Source: Haliotis rufescens
Lineage: Eukaryota
DNA: 64,000 bases
Assembly: GCF_023055435.1 (NCBI RefSeq)
Contig: NW_025964361.1
Location: forward strand, 47,740,001 to 47,804,000
Reading direction: 5' to 3'
Part shown: positions 290-51,453 of the stretch, piece after piece
Layout of the letters: each line of letters starts with the position of its first letter
Position numbering within the stretch: position 1 is the stretch's first letter
The notes under the pieces: generated by a model
Database searches by the model: none
Told to the model about the DNA's origin: nothing
The model's input: only the letters and a program-made list of their open reading frames with translations
Program-made: the position numbers and the translations under genes

Positions 290-488
290 GGTATGTCTGT
301 AGATGCTACATTCATGTGGTTTAAGTGTGTCTGTAGAGACTAAACTTACAGGGTCTAAGTGTGTATGTGGAGAAGCACTTACATGGTCTCAGTGTATGTA
401 GAGACTAAACTTACAGGGTCTAAGTGTGTATGTGGAGAAGCACTTACATGGTCTAAGTGTATGTAAAGACTACACTTACAGGGTCTAA
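290..488. repeat. ~32-33 bp minisatellite overlapping GH13 exon-5 donor
   Basis: (CACTTACA(G/T)GGTCTAAGTGTATGTAGAGACTA)n, ~5-6 copies. Confidence 0.85.
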
Positions 489-32810: not shown

Positions 32811-33025
32811 AGACTGGAAGATGTGACCAACACCCTGCATGGAGCTGTGGTACCCTGTATGGAGTTGTTTGAGCTTGGCCTGGTTCTTGTGTCACTGCGG
32901 GATATCTTGCCACGCCCACAAGCCAGCTCATTAGCATACTGCATCACCACGTCGGGGACAACCAGCGTGCCAAAGGTGGTCCGCGTCCCACACAGCTGCA
33001 TCGTGCCCAACATTCAACATCTGAG
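32811..33025 (+). CDS. AASDH: AASDH exon 4 (AMP-binding P-loop)
   Basis: tgcag|RLED...LAYCITTSGTTSVPKVVRVPHSCIVPNIQHLR|gtagga. Confidence 0.95.
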
Positions 33026-34095
33026 GTAGGATATACTGTATATATCATCTGAAGTAGGATATACTGTATATATCATCTGGAGTAGGATACACTGTATACA
33101 ACATCTGAAGTAGGATATACTGTATACAGCATCTGAAGTAGGATATACTGTATACAACATCTGAAGTAGGATATACTGTATACAGCATCTGAAGTAGGAT
33201 ATACTGTATACAGCATCTGAAGTAGGATATACTGTATACAGCATCTGGAGTAGGATACACTGTATACAACATCTGAAGTAGGATATACTGTATACAGCAT
33301 CTGGAGTAGGATATACAGTATACAGCATCTGGAGTAGGATACACTGTATACAACATCTGAAGTAGGATATACTGTATACAACATCTGAAGTAGGATATAC
33401 TGTATACAGCATCTGAAGTAGGATATACTGTATACAGCGTCTGAAGTAGGATATACTGTATACAGCATCTGAAGTAGGATATACTGTATACAACATCTGA
33501 GGTAGGATATACTGTATACAGCATTTGAGGTAGGATATACAGTATACAGCATCTGGAGTAGGATACACTGTATACAACATCTGAAGTAGGATATACTGTA
33601 TACAGCACCTGAAGTAGGATATACTGTATACAGCATCTGAAGTAGGATATACTGTATACAGCATCTGAGGTAGGATATACTGTATACAGCATCTGAGGTA
33701 GGATATACTTTATACAGCATCTGAAGTAGGATATACTGTATGCAGCATCTGAAATAGGATATACTGTATGCAGCATCTTAAGTAGGATATACTGTATACA
33801 GCATCAGAAATAGGATATACTGTATACAGCATCTCAAGTAGGATATACTTCTTGTATCATCTCAAGTAGGAAATACTTCTTGTATCATCTCAAGTAGGAT
33901 ATACTATATAAATATTATCTCAAGTAGGATATACTGTATATGTAATCTCAGGTAGGCTACACTGTATATATCACCTCAAGAAGGAGAAACTGTAAATATC
34001 ATCTGAGGTAGGATATACTGTATATATCATCTGAGGTAGGATATACTGTATATATCATCTGAGGTAGGATATACTGTATATATCATCTGAGGTAG
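33018..34095. repeat. 28-bp minisatellite starting inside AASDH exon 4
   Basis: (CATCTGA(A/G)GTAGGATATACTGTATACAG)n. Confidence 0.97.
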
Positions 34096-34164
34096 ATATT
34101 ATTTTGTTCATCTCAGGTAAAAAGAAATCAATATGTTAACAAGGTGTATTATGTTTTACTGCAG

Positions 34165-34357
34165 GAAGATATACGAGCTGAACTCAGAGGACCTTTGTTT
34201 CCTTGCATCACCTTTGACCTTTGACCCAAGCATTGTGGAGATTTTTGTGACCTTGACCTCTGGTGCAACCTTGCTTATGACTAATAATGAAGTAAAAGCC
34301 TCACCTAAGAAGTTACTGGAGATACTGTACCATAGGAACCGTGTGTCAGTGCTACAG
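34165..34357 (+). CDS. AASDH: AASDH exon 5
   Basis: tgcag|KIYELNSEDLCFLASPLTFDPSIVEIF...RVSVLQ|gtaaac; A4 motif TFDPS. Confidence 0.95.
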
Positions 34358-34418
34358 GTAAACATGCATGTCAGGGCTATATGACAAGACTGTATAACTT
34401 CAGAACTTGTCTCAAGTA

Positions 34419-34837
34419 CCGTATATGACCGCGGATAAGCCAAATTTTGAGGACCAGAAAAAAGATTCTGTAGAAAGGGGTCGGCTTATCCACGGGATAC
34501 ACTTTCATGATACATGTAGTATTTTTCAGATCGTGATCTGTCAGAAACATTGCCTGAATGACGGTCCGATAGATTACAACTTCCCGAAAGTTTGGAAGTT
34601 CCACGACTAGAGCCATTATTGTTATAAATTATCAATAAAGTTATTATTATACACCAATTTTGTCATTATTAAAAAAATGTTATGCATGTTACTACTTCCG
34701 ATAATAAGTTTTCAATTGAATGTTCAAAGTTGCTCAAAACCATATATCATTTTCTTTCGTATTTCAATGGTCAAGTTAACACCTCGGCTTATCTACGGGG
34801 TCGGCTTATCCGCGGTCGGCTTATCCGCGGTCATATA
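34419..34837. mobile_element. MITE, same family as 23389-23624
   Basis: TA|CCGTATATGACCGCGGATAAGCC...GGCTTATCCGCGGTCATATA; shares internal segment (TTTCGTATTTCAATGGTCAA) in reverse orientation. Confidence 0.85.
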
Positions 34838-35190
34838 GAATATTGCAAGAATAGATCCCTCCCAGGTGTTGGTGTTATGGTTGACCCTGGACAATCCAAC
34901 ACACATGTATTACCTACCTGTGTACAGGTACCAGACCCTTTCTTTACTGGAGACAAACATTTATGAAGAAATAATCGTACAGATAACTGTTTTCTCCAGA
35001 AGAATATTCCAAAAGACTGAAAGCAAATGAAAATCTTATCTTTCATCTGTAAAGTGTTTGTGGAGCGAATATCAAATAGTAGCAATTCAAATCAAGGTAT
35101 GGTGCAACTAGCTGACAGTCTTCTGCATGGGTAGAGATAGATGTTGGGAGCTGCGATGTTGTTTGATGAAGATGCTTTGTATGACCCTAC

Positions 35191-35727
35191 CTTCTCTCTG
35201 TAAAACTATGTTTTGGTGTTCTCTCTGTAAGACTATGTTTTGGTGTTCTCTCTGTAAGACTATGTTTTGGTCTTCTCTCTGAAAGACTATGTTTTGGTCT
35301 TCTCTCTGTAAGACTATGTTTTGGTCTTCTCTCTGTAAGACTATGTTTTGGTCTTCTCTCTGTAAGACTATGTTTTGGTCTTCTCTCTGTAAGACTATGT
35401 TTTGGTCTTCTCTCTGTAAGACTAAGTTTTGGTCTTCTCTCTGTAAGACTATGTTTTGGTCTTCTCTCTGTAAGACTATGTTTTGGTCTTCTCTCTGTAA
35501 GACTATGTTTTGGTCTTCTCTCTGTAAGACTATGTTTTGGTCTTCTCTCTGTAAGACTATGTTTTGGTCTTCTCTCTGTAAGACTATGTTTTGGTCTTCT
35601 CTCTGAAAGACTATGTTTTGGTCTTCTCTCTGTAAGACTATGTTTTGGTCTTCTCTCTGAAAGACTATGTTTTGGTCTTCTCTCTGTAAGACTATGTTTT
35701 GGTCTTCTCTCTGAAAGACTATGTTTT
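35191..35727. repeat. 27-bp minisatellite
   Basis: (TTCTCTCTGTAAGACTATGTTTTGGTC)n, ~20 copies. Confidence 0.97.
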
Positions 35728-36027
35728 GGGGCAAGCACTTGATATTCCGGGGTTGGGAGCATTGGATTGTTTTGAAAATGATATTCTGTTCCTGAAAATA
35801 CTGGAAAAAGTAAATCTGTCCCCAGGTTTAACAAAACAATATAAAATCACTTCGTGGATGTGCGGGATGTTCTTGAAAGTAATGTGTTGTGGTGAACAGA
35901 ATCATGTTGTTCCTCCTAAACATGAAACATGTTTGTAAGTACTGAATTACTTGAACCACTGACAGAAAGATTCTTCTGTCGCAAACACCGACTACGGCTC
36001 CCCCCAGAATGTTAACTGGTCAGTACC

Positions 36028-37188
36028 ATATCATGATTATTTCTTCATCTTACCCTCTGTCTACATGATCCCATCATTATTCCTTCATCTTACCCTCCTG
36101 GCTACATGATGCCATCATTATTCCTTCATCTTACACTCCTGTCGACATGACGCCATCATTATTCCTTCATCTTACACTCCTGTCTACATGACACCATCAT
36201 TATTCCTTCATCTTACACTCCTGTCTACATGACGCCATCATTATTCCCTCATCTTACACTCCTGTCTACATGACGCCATCATTATTCCTTCATCTTACAC
36301 TCCTGTCTACATGATGCCATCATTATTCCTTCATCTTACACTCCTGTCTACGTGACGCCATCATTAATCTTTCATCTTACACTCCTGTCTACATGACGCC
36401 CTCATTATTCCCTCATCTTACACTCCTGTCTACATGACACCATCATTATTCCTTCATCTTACACTCCTGTCTACATGACGCCATCATTATTCCTTCATCT
36501 TACACTCCTGTCTACATGACACCATCATTATTCCTTCATCTTACACTCCTGTCTACATGACGCCATCATTATTCCTTCATCTTACACTCCTGTCTACATG
36601 ACGCCATCATTATTCCTTCATCTTACACTCCTGTCTACATGACAACATCATTATTCCTTCATCTTACCCTCCTGTCCACATTGTGCCATCATTATTCCTT
36701 CATCTTACACTCCTGTCTACATGACAACATCATTATTCTTTCATCGTACCCTCCTGTCCACACGGTGCCATCATTATTCCTTCATCTTACCCTCCTGTCC
36801 ACACGGTGCCATCATTATTCCTTCATCTTACCCTCCTGTCCACATGGTGCCATCATTATTCCTTCATCTTACCCTCCTGTCCACACGGTGCCATCATTAT
36901 TCCTTCATCTTACCCTCCTGTCTACATGACACCATCATTATTCCTTCATCTTACAATCCTGTCTACATGACGCCATCATTATTCCTTCATCTTACACTCC
37001 TGTCTACATGACACCATCATTATTCCTTCATCTTACCCTCCTGTCCACATGGTGCCATCATTATTCCTTCATCTTACACTCCTGTCTACATGACACCCTC
37101 ATTATTCCTTCATCTTACACTCCTGTCTACATGACGCCCTCATTATTCCTTCATGTTATAATCCTGTCCAGATGACGCCATCATTGTT
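36028..37188. repeat. 41-bp minisatellite ending inside AASDH exon 6
   Basis: (ATGACGCCATCATTATTCCTTCATCTTACACTCCTGTCTAC)n, ~28 copies. Confidence 0.97.
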
Positions 37189-37401
37189 GCTGAGGTTTGG
37201 CCCATCGGTTCTGAAATCAACACTCCTGAGTCAGCGGTCAAGTGTTCGGACCCTGGCGCTGGGAGGGGAGAATCTGCCCACCCTGGCCATCCTTCGGTCA
37301 GCCGTGGCCCCTGACTGCCGTGCCACCTTCTACAATCTGTATGGGGTGACCGAAGTGTCCTGCTGGGCCACATGCTTCCGGTTTGATGCAACATATCTTG
37401 A
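37172..37401 (+). CDS. AASDH: AASDH exon 6
   Basis: tccag|MTPSLLLRFG...LALGGE...FYNLYGVTEVSCWA...|gtaagt; A5 motif NLYGxTE. Confidence 0.95.
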
Positions 37402-40400
37402 GTAAGTATCGTCAGTTGTCAGTTGTCAGTAAGTATTGTCAGTTAGTATTGTCAGTTGTCTGTTGTCAGTAAGTATTGTCAGTAAGTATTGTCAGTTGTC
37501 TGTTGTCAGTTGTCAGTAAGTATTTTCAGTTGACTGTTGTCAGTTGTCTGTTGTCAGTTAGTATTGTCAGTTGTCAGTTTTCTGTTGTCAGTAAGTGTTG
37601 TCAGTAAGTATTGTCAGTAAGTATTGTCAGTTGTCTGTTGTATTTCACCTATTGTCAGTAAGTATTGTCAGTAAGTATTGTCAGTTGTCTGTTTTAAGTT
37701 GTCTGTTGTCAGTAAGTATTGTCGGTAAGTATTGTCAGTTGTCTGTTGTCAGTAAGTATTGTCAGTAAGTATTGTCAGTTGTCAGTTGTCTGTTGTCAGT
37801 AAGTATTGTCAGTTGTCTGTTGTCTGTTGTCAGTAAGTGTTGTCAGTTGTCAGTAAGTATTGTCAGTTGTCTGTTGTCAGTAAGTATTGTCAGTTGTCTG
37901 TTGTCAGTAAGGATTGTCAGTTGTCTGTTGTCAGTAAGTATTGTCAGTTGTCAGTTGTCTGTTGTCAGTCAGTATTGTCAGTTGTCTGTTGTCAGTAAGT
38001 ATTGTCAGTAAGTATTGTCAGTTGTCTGTTGGCAGTAAGTGTTGTCAGTTGTCTGTTGTCAGTAAGTATAGTCAGTTGTCTGTTGTCAGTAAGTATTGCC
38101 AGTTGTCTGTTGTCAGTAAGTATTGTCAGTTGTCTGTTGTCAGTAAGTATTGTCAGTTGTCAGTTGTCAGTAAGTATTGTCAGTTGTCTGTTGTCAGTAA
38201 GTATTGTCAGTTATCTGTTGTCAGTAAGTATTGTCAGTTGTCTGTTGTCAGTAGGTATTGTCAGTTGTCTGTTGCCAGTAAGTATTGTCAGTTGTCAGTA
38301 AGTATTATCAGTTGTCAGTTGTCAGTTGTCAGTTGTCAGTTGTCTATTGTCAGTTGTCAGTTGTCAGTAAGTATTGTCAGTTGTCTGTTGTCAGTAAGTA
38401 TTGTCAGTTGTCTGTTGTCAGTAAGAATTGTCAGATGTCTGTTGTCAGTAAGTATTGTCAGTTGTCAGTTGTCAGTAAGTATTGTCAGTTGTCTGTTGTC
38501 TGTTGTCAGTAAGTGTTGTCAGTTGTCAGTTGTCAGTAAGTATTGTCAGTTGTCTGTTGTCAGTAAGTATCTGCAGTTGTCAGTTGTCAGTTGTCAGTAA
38601 GTATTGTCAGTTGTCTGTTGTCAGTCAGTATTGTCAGTTGTCAGTTGTCAGTAAGTATTGTCAGTTGTCTGTTGTCAGTAAGGATTGTCAGTTGTCTGTT
38701 GTCAGTAAGTATTGTCAGTTGTCTGTTGTCAGTCAGTATTGTCAGTTGTCTGTTGTCAGTAAGTATTGTCAGTAAGTATTGTCAGTTGTCTGTTGGCAGT
38801 AAGTGTTGCCAGTTGTCTGTTGTCAGTAAGTATTGTCAGTTGTCTGTTGTCAGTAAGTATTGTCAGTTGTCAGTTGTCAGTAAGTATTGTCAGTTGTCTG
38901 TTGGCAGTAAGTGTTGCCAGTTGTCTGTTGTCAGTAAGTATTGTCAGTTGTCTGTTGTCAGTCAGTATTGTCAGTTGTCAGTTGTCAGTAAGTATTGTCA
39001 GTTGTCTGTTGTCAGTAAGGATTGTCAGTTGTCTGTTGTCAGTAAGTATTGTCAGTTGTCTGTTGTCAGTCAGTATTGTCAGTTGTCTGTTGTCAGTAAG
39101 TATTGTCAGTAAGTATTGTCAGTTGTCTGTTGGCAGTAAGTGTTGCCAGTTGTCTGTTGTCAGTAAGTATTGTCAGTTGTCTGTTGTCAGTAAGTATTGT
39201 CAGTTGTCAGTTGTCAGTAAGTATTTTCAGTTGACTGTTGTCAGTTGTCTGTTGTCAGTTAGTATTGTCAGTTGTCAGTTTTCTGTTGTCAGTAAGTGTT
39301 GTCAGTAAGTATTGTCAGTAAGTATTGTCAGTTGTCTGTTGTATTTCACCTATTGTCAGTAAGTATTGTCAGTAAGTATTGTCAGTTGTCTGTTTTAAGT
39401 TGTCTGTTGTCAGTAAGTATTGTCGGTAAGTATTGTCAGTTGTCTGTTGTCAGTAAGTATTGTCAGTAAGTATTGTCAGTTGTCAGTTGTCTGTTGTCAG
39501 TAAGTATTGTCAGTTGTCTGTTGTCTGTTGTCAGTAAGTGTTGTCAGTTGTCAGTAAGTATTGTCAGTTGTCTGTTGTCAGTAAGTATTGTCAGTTGTCT
39601 GTTGTCAGTAAGGATTGTCAGTTGTCTGTTGTCAGTAAGTATTGTCAGTTGTCAGTTGTCTGTTGTCAGTCAGTATTGTCAGTTGTCTGTTGTCAGTAAG
39701 TATTGTCAGTAAGTATTGTCAGTTGTCTGTTGGCAGTAAGTGTTGTCAGTTGTCTGTTGTCAGTAAGTATAGTCAGTTGTCTGTTGTCAGTAAGTATTGC
39801 CAGTTGTCTGTTGTCAGTAAGTATTGTCAGTTGTCTGTTGTCAGTAAGTATTGTCAGTTGTCAGTTGTCAGTAAGTATTGTCAGTTGTCTGTTGTCAGTA
39901 AGTATTGTCAGTTATCTGTTGTCAGTAAGTATTGTCAGTTGTCTGTTGTCAGTAGGTATTGTCAGTTGTCTGTTGCCAGTAAGTATTGTCAGTTGTCAGT
40001 AAGTATTATCAGTTGTCAGTTGTCAGTTGTCAGTTGTCAGTTGTCTATTGTCAGTTGTCAGTTGTCAGTAAGTCTTGTCAGTTGTCTGTTGTCAGTAAGT
40101 ATTGTCAGTTGTCTGTTGTCAGTAAGAATTGTCAGATGTCTGTTGTCAGTAAGTATTGTCAGTTGTCAGTTGTCAGTAAGTATTGTCAGTTGTCTGTTGT
40201 CTGTTGTCAGTAAGTGTTGTCAGTTGTCAGTTGTCAGTAAGTATTGTCAGTTGTCTGTTGTCAGTAAGTATCTGCAGTTGTCAGTTGTCAGTTGTCAGTA
40301 AGTATTGTCAGTTGTCTGTTGTCAGTCAGTATTGTCAGTTGTCAGTTGTCAGTAAGTATTGTCAGTTGTCTGTTGTCAGTAAGGATTGTCAGTTGTCTGT

Positions 40401-41722
40401 TGTCAGTAAGTATTGTCAGTTGTCTGTTGTCAGTCAGTATTGTCAGTTGTCTGTTGTCAGTAAGTATTGTCAGTAAGTATTGTCAGTTGTCTGTTGGCAG
40501 TAAGTGTTGCCAGTTGTCTGTTGTCAGTAAGTATTGTCAGTTGTCTGTTGTCAGTAAGTATTGTCAGTTGTCAGTTGTCAGTAAGTATTGTCAGTTGTCT
40601 GTTGGCAGTAAGTGTTGCCAGTTGTCTGTTGTCAGTAAGTATTGTCAGTTGTCTGTTGTCAGTCAGTATTGTCAGTTGTCAGTTGTCAGTAAGTATTGTC
40701 AGTTGTCTGTTGTCAGTAAGGATTGTCAGTTGTCTGTTGTCAGTAAGTATTGTCAGTTGTCTGTTGTCAGTCAGTATTGTCAGTTGTCTGTTGTCAGTAA
40801 GTATTGTCAGTAAGTATTGTCAGTTGTCTGTTGGCAGTAAGTGTTGCCAGTTGTCTGTTGTCAGTAAGTATTGTCAGTTGTTTGTTGTCAGTAAGTATTG
40901 TCAGTTGTCAGTTGTCAGTAAGTGTTGTCAGTTGTCAGTTGTCAGTAAGTATTGCCAGTTGTCTGTTGTCAGTAAGTATTGTCAGTTGTCTGTTGTCAGT
41001 CAGTATTGTCAGTTGTCAGTTGTCAGTAAGTATTGTCAGTTGTCTGTTGTCAGTAAGTATTGTCAGTTGTCTGTTGTCAGTAAGTATTGTCAGTTGTCTG
41101 TTGTCAGTAAGTATTGTCAGTTGTCTGTTGCCAGTAAGTATTGTCAGTTGTCAGTAAGTATTATCAGTTGTCAGTTGTCAGTTGTATATTGTCAGTTGTC
41201 AGTTGTCAGTAAGTATTGTCAGTTGTCTGTTGTCAGTAAGTATTGTCAGTTGTCTGTTGTCAGTAAGTATTGTCAGTTGTCTGTTGTCAGTAGGTATTGT
41301 CAGTTGTCTGTTGCCGGTAAGTATTGTCAGTTGTCAGTAAGTATTATCAGTTGTCAGTTGTCAGTTGTATATTGTCAGCTGTCAGTTGTCAGTAAGTATT
41401 GTCAGATGTCTGTTGTCAGTAAGTATTGTCAGTTGTCTGTTGCCAGTAAGTATTGTCAGTTGTCAGTAAGTATTATCAGTTGTCAGTTGTCAGTTGTCTA
41501 TTGTCAGTTGTCAGTTGTCAGTAAGTATTGTCAGTTGTCTGTTGTCAGTAAGTATTGTCAGTTGTCTGTTGTCAGTAAGTATTGTCAGATGTCTGTTGTC
41601 AGTAAGTATTGTCAGTTGTCTGTTGCCAGTAAGTATTGTCAGTTGTCAGTAAGTATTATCAGTTGTCAGTTGTCTATTGTCAGTTGACAGTAAGTATTGT
41701 CAGTTGTCTGTGGTCAGTCAGT
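37401..41722. repeat. 27-bp (7-bp subunit) satellite starting at the AASDH exon-6 donor
   Basis: (GTCAGTAAGTATTGTCAGTTGTCTGTT)n with a 1701-bp internal duplication. Confidence 0.97.
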
Positions 41723-41789
41723 AATGGTAGCACACATAAGATGAAGTTAGGTCGCAGAGAGTCCTTGGATGGGTGAAGATGTCCATCAG

Positions 41790-42419: not shown

Positions 42420-42532
42420 GCAAGGCGAAGAAGGACCAATTCCATTAGGTGCTGTTCTTGATGGAACAGAGGTGAAGGTCACTGACAGCGACGGTCATCA
42501 GGTCACATGTGGAGAGGGGAGACTACAGATAG
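42420..42532 (+). CDS. AASDH: AASDH exon 7 (not in ORF track)
   Basis: tttttcaaag|QGEEGPIPLGAVLDGTEVKVTDSDGHQVTCGEGRLQIG|gtaggt; phase 2-1 fits neighbours. Confidence 0.85.
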
Positions 42533-43402: not shown

Positions 43403-44686
43403 CGTGGGCTGGCTGAAAAGTTCTAAGCCTAACTGTGAAAGACCCGTACCAAGTCGATGGTTTTCATTTATTTCTCCACATAGTCCCCTTCCAGGTTTAC
43501 ACACTATGCCAGCGATGCTGCAAGGCCTGGATGCCGGTCAAGAAGAAATTTTCTTCAGCCACCCTAAAAAAGTCATTCACAGCGGAAATGACGTCATCAT
43601 TACTCGGAAAATGGCGACCGGCTAGTTCCTTTTTCATTTTGGGAAACAGGTGGAAGTCTGCCGGGGCCAAATCGGGTGAATAAGTGGGATGGTCAATGAG
43701 TTCGAAGCCACAATCATGGATCGCTGACATGGTAACCACTGATTTGTGAACAGGAGCATTGTCTTGGTGGAACAGGACTTCTTTAGTGAGCATTCCCCGT
43801 CGCTTAGCTTTGATAGCTTCACGTAACTGTCTCAGTAGGTCAGCATAATATCTTCCATTGACAGTCTGGCCTTTTTCAAGATAGTCAATCAGCAGAATAC
43901 CCTTGGAATCCCAAAAGACTGAAGCCATCACCTTTCCAGCAGAAGGAACCGACTTGGCTTTTTGGTGGGCTGGTGATTCCATTGTTAAGACTGAATTTTG
44001 GTTTCTGGTTGAAAGTGATGAATCCAGGTCTCATCCATGGTTACAAATCGGGCCAAAAAATCATCACGATCTGCTTCAAAACGGCATAAATGGTCACGGA
44101 ACGTCAGGATTCTGACACGTTTCTGATCTGCTGTCAAGAGCTTTGGCACCCATCTTGCAGAAACTTTTGTCATTCCCAACTCGTTGGTGATAATGTGCTC
44201 AACCCTCTCATGAGAGATGCCCACAACACTGGCAATATGTCGAGTGGTCAATTGTCGATCAGCCATCAACATGTCATGCACCCGTGTAATGTTTTTTTGG
44301 AATGGTTGCTGTTGAAGGCCTTCCTGGACGCGGGTCATCGTCAAGGCTCTCTCTGCCATGCTTGAATTCCGCAGCCCACTTCTTTACAGTGGAAAAGGAA
44401 GGGGCATCATCCCCTAAAGTGGAGACCATGTCAGCATGTATCTGTGTTGGAGTTAGCCCTTTCAGTTGCAGGTACTTGATGACTGCCCTATAGCCAGTTT
44501 TGTCAATTTCTGGTGATTTCAATGGGTAGGTTCACAAGATGGTCTGGTACAAAGACAATAATAACACTACAGTTGCAGTTCTTATGTCTATGATTCATTA
44601 AATGATTTTACTTGTTGGTGGCAAAAGTTTGTTTCAATCCGATTGAGATATCCCATTTAGGCTTAGAACTTTTCAGCCAGCCCTCA
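43403..44686 (-). mobile_element. Full-length mariner (Tc1/mariner, DD34D) transposon
   Basis: TIR (C/T)G(T/A)GGGCTGGCTGAAAAGTTCTAAGCCTA at both ends, TA duplication, ~1.28 kb. Confidence 0.95.
43468..44507 (-). pseudogene. Disrupted mariner transposase
   Basis: Split over ORFs 44274-44522, 43985-44359, 43497-43982: WVPKLL, TMDETW, HQDNAP, YSPDLAPADF, C-terminal GDYVEK*; two frameshifts, a stop at ~43985, start codon apparently ATT. Confidence 0.92.
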
Positions 44687-45709: not shown

Positions 45710-45857
45710 ATAGTGCAAGAATCTTGAACGCGACATTAAACCCCATTTCACCCCATCTCCTTAAGCCAGACGATTTCACATGGACTGGTAGTGTCCAGCT
45801 TTCCAAGGTTTTACTGTGTATTTGTTACTTCATTCTGAATGTGATACTTCTTCACAG

Positions 45858-47989: not shown

Positions 47990-49355
47990 CTGTACACCAC
48001 ATCTACCACATTGGTCCACCATACCTGTCCACCACATCGGTCCACCATACCTATCCACCATACTTATCCACCACATCGGTCCACCATACCTGTCCACTAC
48101 ATTGGTCCACCATACCTGTCCACCACATCGGTCCACCATAACTGTACATCATACCTGTCCACTACATTGGTCCACCATACCTGTCCACCACATCGGTCCA
48201 CCATACCTATCCACCACATTGGTCCACCATACCTGTCCACCATACCTGTACACCATAGCTGTACACCATACCTGTCCACCATACCTGTACACCATAGCTG
48301 TACACCATACCTATCCACCACATTGGTCCACCATACCTATCCACCATACTTAAACTACCACATCTGTCCACCATACCTGTCCACCACATCGGTCCACCAT
48401 ACCTGTCCACCACATCGGTCCACCATACCTGTCCACCACATCGGTCCACCATACCTATCCACCACATCGGTCCACCATACCTGTCCACCACATCGGTCCA
48501 CCATACCTGTCCACCACATCGGTCCACCATACCTGTCCACCACATCGGTCCACCATACCTGTCCACCACATCGGTCCACCATACCTGTCTACCACATCGG
48601 TCCACCATACCTGTCCACCACATTGGTTCACCATACCTGTCCACCACATCGGTCCACCACATCGGTCCACCATACCTGTCCACCACATTGGTCCACCATA
48701 CTTATCCACTATACCTGTCCACCACATCGGTCCACCATACCTATCCACCACATCGGTCCACTATACCTGTCCACCACATCGGTCCACCACATTGGTCCAC
48801 CATACCTGTCCACCACATCGGTCCACCACATCGGTCCACCATACCTGTCCACCACATTGGTCCACCATACTTATCCACTATACCTGTCCACCACATCGGT
48901 CCACCATACCTGTCCACCACATTGGTCCACCATACCTGTCCACCACATTGGTCCACCATACCTGTCCACCACATTGGTCCACCATACCTGTCCACCACAT
49001 CGGTCCACCATACCTGTCCACCACATCGGTCCACCACATCGGTCCACCACATTGGTCCACTATACCTGTCCACCACATTGGTCCACCATACCTATCCACC
49101 ATACTTATCCACCACATCGGTCCACCATACCTGTCCACCACATTGGTCCACTATACCTGTCCACCACATTGGTCCACCATACCTATCCACCATACTTATC
49201 CACCACATCGGTCCACCATACCTGTCCACCACATCGGTCCACCATACCTGTCCACCACATCGGTCCACCATACCTATCCACCATACTTATCCACCACATC
49301 GGTCCACCATACCTGTACACCATACCTGTACACCATACCTGTACACCATACCCGT
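47990..49355. repeat. 13/26-bp composite minisatellite
   Basis: Mix of CCACCACATCGGT and CCACCATACCTGT subunits. Confidence 0.97.
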
Positions 49356-49498
49356 GTGTCATACCGATGTTCATGTGTTTCACCAAAGTGGTAAACCTCT
49401 ATGACCTGGATCACTTCAGGCTGTCCTCTTGCGCCAAGCTGACACACTGTGATAAAACTGACACACTGTTAAAGTTGGTGTTGAATCCAACACCCAAC
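49341..49498 (+). mobile_element. SINE C 3' half, fused to the end of a minisatellite
   Basis: CACCATACCCGT...GTTTCACCAAAGTGGTAAAC...AAGCTGACAC. Confidence 0.75.
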
Positions 49499-50284: not shown

Positions 50285-51453
50285 GACCATCTTCATCCAT
50301 CAGGAAACAGTAGAGATATCCTGGACATGGATGAGTTTCTAGCTCTGGGTGGAAACTCCCTCCAGGCTGTCAGTCTGGTCAACATGGTGGAGGATCAACT
50401 CGGGCATCATGGCTCCTTGCTTCTGGACACTGTCCTCAATAAGACTTTCCTTGACTTTGTCCAGCATGTCCAGGGGGTGATGGCAAGCGTCCAGAGCCAA
50501 GATGCAGCTGCTGTATCTGGGGATGGGAAGAGTGAGGACCCTGAACCTGTGCCAGCCACCATCCAGAGCCAAGATGCAGCTGCTGTATCTGGGGACGGGA
50601 AGAGTCAGGACCCTGAACCTGTGCCAGCAACCATCCAGAGCCAAGATGCAGCTGCTGTATCTGGGGATGGGAAGAGTCAGGACCCTGAACCTGTGCCAGC
50701 AACCATCCAGAGCCAAGATGCAGCTGCTGTATCTTGGGAGGGGAAGAGGGAGGACCCTGAACCTGTTCCAGCAACCATCCAGAGCCAAGATGCAGCTGCT
50801 GTATCTGGGGACGGGAAGAGTCAGGACCCTGAACCTGTTCCAGCAACATCTGCTCATCCTGTTGTGAGCGAGCCTGTATCAGCTGATATTACTGAAGATG
50901 TCCATGATGGCTCAAAAACACAGATGAAACTTGAAGGATGTTGGACAGAGCATATGTGTTGTAAATTTGCTGGGTCTGTTTCCCGAGGCAGTAAATATCA
51001 GGGAACAGTTAGGCTATCAATGGCCAGTGTAGACCCAGGTGCTACAGATATCCAGCAGGATCGTGTATCGAGTCAAGCAGATTTCGAGCAGGATCGTCTA
51101 TTGAGTCGAGCAGATGTCCAGCAGGATCGTGTATTGAGTCGAGCAGATGTCCAGCAGGATCGTGTATCGAGTAAAGCAGATGTCCAGCAGGATCGTGTAT
51201 CGAGTAAAGCAGATGTCCAGCAGGATCGTGTATCGAGTCAAGCAGATGTCCAGCAGGACCGTGTATCGAGTCCAGAAGATTTTGAGCAGTGTTATGTGTC
51301 AAGGCCTACAGGAGTGGAATGGGATCGGGTGTTGATGAACAGAGTCGACTCAAGTCATCCAGGAGTTGATCAGGATTGTGTGTCAATGTCCCTGTGCTGG
51401 AAGTATGACACTGAGAAGTGTGTGGATGCCTCGCCTCTGGTGGCAGTCAGCAG
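50285..51453 (+). CDS. AASDH: AASDH exon 11 (carrier/thiolation domain + repetitive linker + start of PQQ-like propeller)
   Basis: tccag|DHLHP...FLALGGNSLQAV (phosphopantetheine Ser at 50357) ... WKYDTEKCVDASPL|gtgagg. Confidence 0.9.

Follow-up and report, generated by a model that had tools for sequence, protein, structure and literature searches.

A tandem repeat in the genome of Haliotis rufescens ends on a splice acceptor and consists of copies of that same acceptor, in which AC stands in place of the terminal AG in every copy except the last. The repeat lies in a window of 64,000 nucleotides of repeat-rich animal DNA (contig NW_025964361.1, positions 47,740,001 to 47,804,000, forward strand) and raises the question of why an AG-less unit has been amplified there. 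The first-pass annotation took the array as a sign that expansion had been permitted to a splice-dead variant alone. The other view is that the change from G to C was an ordinary one, carried by the unit from which the array was founded.

Host gene and used junction

The host gene encodes a beta-alanine-activating enzyme-like protein (AASDH) and occupies about 24613–60891 on the + strand, with 16 coding exons placed by mapping the Haliotis rufescens protein P0270 exon by exon. The array lies at the 3' end of a phase 0, GT-AG intron of 2,814 nt (34358–37171, +) with an ordinary major-type donor, which the P0270 mapping places between an upstream exon at 34165–34357 (+) and a coding exon at 37172–37401 (+). 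The latter shows 100% identity to P0270 and corresponds to about residues 251–327, in the AMP-binding domain; its match to PF00501 (E 4.3e-5) falls under the curated cut-off. Contigs from three of three probable RNA runs, which come from two studies (X12, X13, and X17), connect the upstream exon with 37172; the RNA status of these runs is presumed and not on record, and the contigs do skip both introns. Both ends of the exon are joined in these contigs, which in two of the three runs extend into the exon at 42420. Because the contigs join at 37172, the last copy of the array is the used acceptor, and the junction is where the first-pass annotation had placed it on sequence alone, as the P0270 mapping also indicates. 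The exon starts at no other position in the contigs of the three runs, and no alternative junction was found in them, contigs being assemblies from which rare forms drop out. The protein junction carries no insertion in H. asinina or in a salamander.

Several further observations concern this gene. The X12 and X13 contigs, which are labelled as the organism of the window, differ from the window at 8–9 of about 230 bases in 37172–37401, while the runs of organism B show six differences in the same exon, fewer than X12 and X13. The divergence of X12 and X13 may reflect a divergent haplotype, a hybrid or a label problem. The long AASDH exon contains in-frame coding tandem repeats at 50483–50847 (72 bp x 5) and 51045–51280 (33 bp x 7), both on the + strand. 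AASDH has 1,615 residues here as compared with about 1,100 in the salamander, and the in-frame repeats account for part of the difference. Two open frames at 43497–44383, within an AASDH intron, resemble, by eye, a mariner-type transposase.

Structure of the array

The array spans 36032–37185 (+) and is described by TRF as 28.2 copies of 41 bp with 92% matches. The unit comprises 27 nt from the end of the intron and 14 nt from the beginning of the exon, in register with the real junction, and is thus the copy of a splice-acceptor junction that it had been read as. Some 17 nt of exon start had also been ascribed to it; these are present on the + strand if one mismatch is accepted, and the exact part is 14 nt. 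All 27 upstream units (36038–37144, +) have AC at the acceptor position in register, as had been claimed, none of them retaining AG, and AG is found in the terminal functional copy alone (37145–37185, +), at 37170–37171, where the probable RNA contigs join. The 5'-most unit, shortened to 40 bp by a deletion, has AC as well. Comparison of the terminal copy with the array consensus reveals differences at 5/41 positions, all of them on the intron side; three are fixed, and G>C is among these. The probability that one of the differences lands on the AG is 0.14–0.34, depending on the mode of counting. The 27 ACs are a single inherited change and not 27 events.

A search of the abalone's own genome (G000) with the junction and exon returned at least 26 matches, every one at the AASDH locus, and since the matches are confined to this locus the repeat was likely born locally. 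The array has been recovered from 4/4 DNA runs, three representing organism A in further studies and one representing organism B, in contigs whose depth does not equal copy number. In run X9 one loose end carries AC, with the AG/AC position near the end of the compared stretch.

An AG count between 36030 and 37168 gives zero; no AG starts anywhere from 36023 to 37169, which is the longest AG-free run of the + strand of the window. Base composition would predict 18, a contrast that is invalid as a test because the copies of the array are mutually dependent, and the AG count was dropped as evidence of selection for this reason. The description of an AG-free, pyrimidine-rich zone of about 1.1 kb ahead of the exon is nevertheless accurate (71% pyrimidine).

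Long AG-free, pyrimidine-rich stretches ahead of the 3' splice site are characteristic of AG-exclusion zones with distant branch points. The abalone array shares the AG-free stretch with such zones, while here the stretch is a by-product of the repeated 41-bp unit. The array might then be a functional element that, as a long AG-exclusion or pyrimidine-rich zone supplied with spare branch points, makes the acceptor stronger or controls its use. Its composition over 1.1 kb would fit such a role, as would its presence in organism B and in the further organism A studies. The kilobase is AG-free, however, because one AG-less unit is repeated, and a mid-intron array at 48297–49386 likewise yields an AG-free run, of 1,090 nt. 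The single junction seen in the probable RNA contigs, within their reach for rare forms, and the uninterrupted protein junction in H. asinina and the salamander also speak against regulation, and a functional element is highly improbable. The array is likely to be without function.

The AC could also be a relic of the minor spliceosome, that is, an ancestral or live acceptor of the AT-AC type, with a motif in each unit that resembles the U12 branch site and lies some 18 nt ahead of a YAC. The U12 branch consensus is TTCCTTRAY and the U12 donor consensus RTATCCTT. The branch consensus is matched at 21 positions of the array, with one mismatch each, but the count of such matches in the window as a whole is at chance (69 vs 63 +/- 8). 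An exact RTATCCTT is absent from the + strand of the window, the sole near match in the host intron has a mismatch in the core, and the real donor at 34358 is of the major type. With no U12 donor upstream of the AC, a U12-type (AT-AC) acceptor was rejected, and we regard this origin as the least probable of those considered.

Junction arrays in the dynein genes and the neighbourhood

The expectation that acceptor-anchored arrays are depleted in AG was examined in 1.4 Mb over 16 dynein heavy-chain regions of the same genome and in 464 kb around the window, which together are not a random sample of the genome. The dynein junctions were placed by protein alignment and splice-site scores, and 626 of 657 were kept, 31 being dropped for weak support. 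Copies were scored by their flanks alone, with the AG or GT columns excluded. The minimum for the right flank was lowered from 7 to 6; at 7, there are five arrays with AG in 56/56 copies from 500 junctions. Eight single-copy dynein hits (five with AG, three without) were not counted as arrays.

Eight of the 626 dynein junctions have at least two upstream copies of the acceptor, and AG is retained in 8/8 of these arrays and in 93/97 copies. The periods are 35, 44, 46, 55, 56, 61, 81, and 82; retention of AG solely at periods divisible by three was ruled out, as 7/8 are not divisible and the 81-bp one meets a stop. All 93 retained AGs would lead to a frameshift or a stop if they were used. Several of the arrays have a majority of copies that score equal to the real site (17/29 in the largest case). 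On the donor side, 14 dynein junctions have multi-copy arrays, and GT is mostly retained in all of them. One dynein gene (G000:C334, L055–L064) has 29 copies of 44 bp and 19 copies of 46 bp with AG intact at stitched positions 45819 and 69643, respectively; most of these copies match the real acceptor in score, and the use of any would result in a frameshift or stop.

The de novo scan of the 464 kb yielded 17 acceptor rows, of which three with protein support were kept and 14 dropped. Among the 14, four are mostly non-AG, and three of these four coincide with or adjoin donor-side arrays that belong to other candidate exons; a Pfam scan of five of the 14 gave none over the cut-off. An exon of endonuclease V (L164:4692, -) has at least 18 upstream copies with a period of 52, the nearest 154 nt away, and AG is present in 18/18. 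In all, there are ten protein-supported acceptor-spanning arrays, nine with AG in the consensus and one in which it is lost, as against 0.83 losses expected from flank divergence, a rough figure that includes the divergence of the AASDH array itself. The 95% interval for a loss of 1/10 is 0.3–45%. A count based on TRF gives an AG-free unit in 0/9 acceptor-spanning arrays. The general claim of an expansion restricted to splice-dead variants is thus contradicted by the arrays of the same genome, and AG depletion beyond expectation was not observed in the dynein regions and the neighbourhood. Seven of the nine AG-keeping arrays have a consensus identical to the functional flanks; these undiverged arrays may be younger, with selection perhaps yet to act on them. 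The use of the last AG at the AG-keeping arrays rests on protein alignment.

Junction-spanning arrays are not enriched in the TRF count, with nine at acceptors and 12 at donors compared with 13.2 per side by random placement; the acceptor figure is slightly below random. In the 16 dynein regions, a mild enrichment exists for array ends at or near acceptors (40 of 204 vs 27.1 expected, P = 0.012) and none for ends near donors (31 vs 27.1). Among arrays whose end lies no more than 40 nt from an acceptor, 12/31 are AG-free, compared with 32/135 of those in mid-intron. The higher proportion near acceptors is as expected, because units there are copied from the AG-exclusion zone.

A narrower form of the selection argument applies to the AASDH locus alone. 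At a weak acceptor, AG-bearing copies would capture splicing and produce nonsense, and only an AC unit could expand. The real AASDH acceptor is indeed fairly weak (score 6.6, 21st percentile of the 626), and a 41-nt unit shifts the reading frame, but three dynein arrays with still weaker real acceptors (5.6, 5.8, and 6.0) retain AG in 19/19, 5/6, and 20/23 copies. Capture by the AASDH copies is also made less credible by their scores, which outside the AG columns are 0.4 for the array copy and 2.7 for the real site. The uniformity of the array, with AC in every unit including that at the far edge, would follow from such a filter, as would the absence of AG-creating changes among the 17 variant alleles in 26 in-register units, but with 1.3 expected this absence has P = 0.24, and a single event cannot demonstrate selection. 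That G>C was a permissive step at the AASDH acceptor, with selection on splicing deciding which unit could expand, is accordingly viewed as unlikely, though less so than a functional element. If it were true, the locus would reveal a context-dependent splicing filter on the birth of minisatellites, for which the AG-keeping arrays (about 1/80 of dynein acceptors) would serve as contrast, and would provide a natural test set for the choice of the last among many identical 3' splice sites.

Relation to known repeats

Repeats of this kind have been described in amphioxus under the name of mirage minisatellites, in Adh3, the globins BflGb6 and BflGb9, troponin C, and PGBD5, according to the available text of the reports (PMC3087553, PMC3902484). 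In the sections consulted of one of these, AG or GT is retained in many, but not all, repeats, splicing appears normal, and the edges of the clusters escape homogenisation (PMC3087553). The AASDH array belongs to this known type, and four features of the type are found in it: it is a head-to-tail tandem repeat of minisatellite size, its unit crosses an actual boundary between exon and intron in the host gene, its interior is homogenised with diverged boundary copies, and the copy at its edge is the authentic site with normal splicing, as judged from contigs that rare forms may escape. On a fifth, length instability between alleles or cells, the observation is the presence of the array in the 4/4 DNA runs, whose summed contig depth is no measure of copy number. 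It differs in occurring in a gastropod and in that all 27 spare copies are without AG, whereas in amphioxus, as far as the available text goes, many repeats, though not all, have AG or GT.

Human minisatellites that span a junction have also been reported, in F7 IVS7 (37 bp), CBS IVS13, IFI6 (6-16), LMNB2, and PDGF intron 4 (PMC1557585, available text). As in the abalone, the monomer spans the junction and so carries further copies of the splice signal into the intron, and the authentic site at the edge is mainly used. Unlike the abalone array, which reiterates an acceptor whose AG has been lost, the human examples in that text reiterate the donor, mostly intact. A search of the mollusc and Haliotis literature, in a collection without most subscription journals, found no paper on Haliotis arrays of this kind.

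Origin of the array

The best explanation, to which we assign a probability of roughly 0.78, is that the AASDH array is a mirage-type intronic minisatellite in which G>C was likely an ordinary founder change and the AC unit was then likely amplified. A 41-bp piece across the AASDH 3' splice site would have been duplicated in tandem, perhaps seeded by a short similarity of the ATCAT type at the 5' flank of the array and the exon start. The upstream copy would then have acquired G>C at its AG, and since the unit at the far edge carries AC as well, this change probably came ahead of amplification. Expansion and homogenisation of the AC unit may have proceeded by slippage or unequal exchange, leaving out the functional copy at the edge. 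The G>C change would have been neutral and not required for the expansion.

Intact spare acceptors appear to be tolerated in this genome, to judge from the predicted junctions. The tolerance is most likely due to exon definition, which would favour the copy with the whole exon behind it, while nonsense transcripts would be removed. In vitro work by Reed and Maniatis in 1986 reportedly found that a duplicated 3' site with a short piece of exon is skipped for the downstream site.

The AASDH array is in itself a neat but unexceptional case of a repeat type already known. What is useful is the count obtained along the way: 8 acceptors and 14 donors of the 626 dynein junctions carry arrays, and nearly all of these keep the signal. 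As many as 29 intact acceptors, each leading to nonsense if used, follow one another at intervals of 44 nt. Should RNA data confirm that the last AG is used faithfully, the dynein loci would offer a natural experiment on how one 3' splice site is chosen from a set of identical competitors, and the AASDH array with its ACs would be the AG-less control.

Other junction-derived arrays in the window

Other arrays derived from splice junctions exist in the window. One begins at the donor of the exon at 37172–37401 and extends over 37401–41723 (+), with 129 more AGTAAGT copies after the real donor; the latter, the first of the series, is the donor used in the probable RNA contigs. A 28-bp donor-spanning mirage of AASDH, upstream by two introns' ends, is located at 33018–34099 (+) and has GT in 34/37 copies. 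In this mirage 14/27 pattern matches have A for G at the last exon position, which makes a weaker donor, with GT intact.

On the - strand, an alpha-amylase-family gene contains a 33-bp acceptor-derived array at 1279–1806, with AG in 13/14 unit ends, which makes it a further case against the general claim on splice-dead variants. Its source is the final 33 nt of the intron with the acceptor at 1214, and the flanking exons match PF00128 (E 2e-12 and 6.6e-11). Counted upstream from the real AG, the first three others, at distances of 33, 78, and 111 nt, are in frame and stop-free, and in-frame alternative acceptors are possible in this gene. The alpha-amylase-family gene also has a 65-bp donor-spanning array at 317–488 (-), in which GTAAGT is present in four copies past the real donor.
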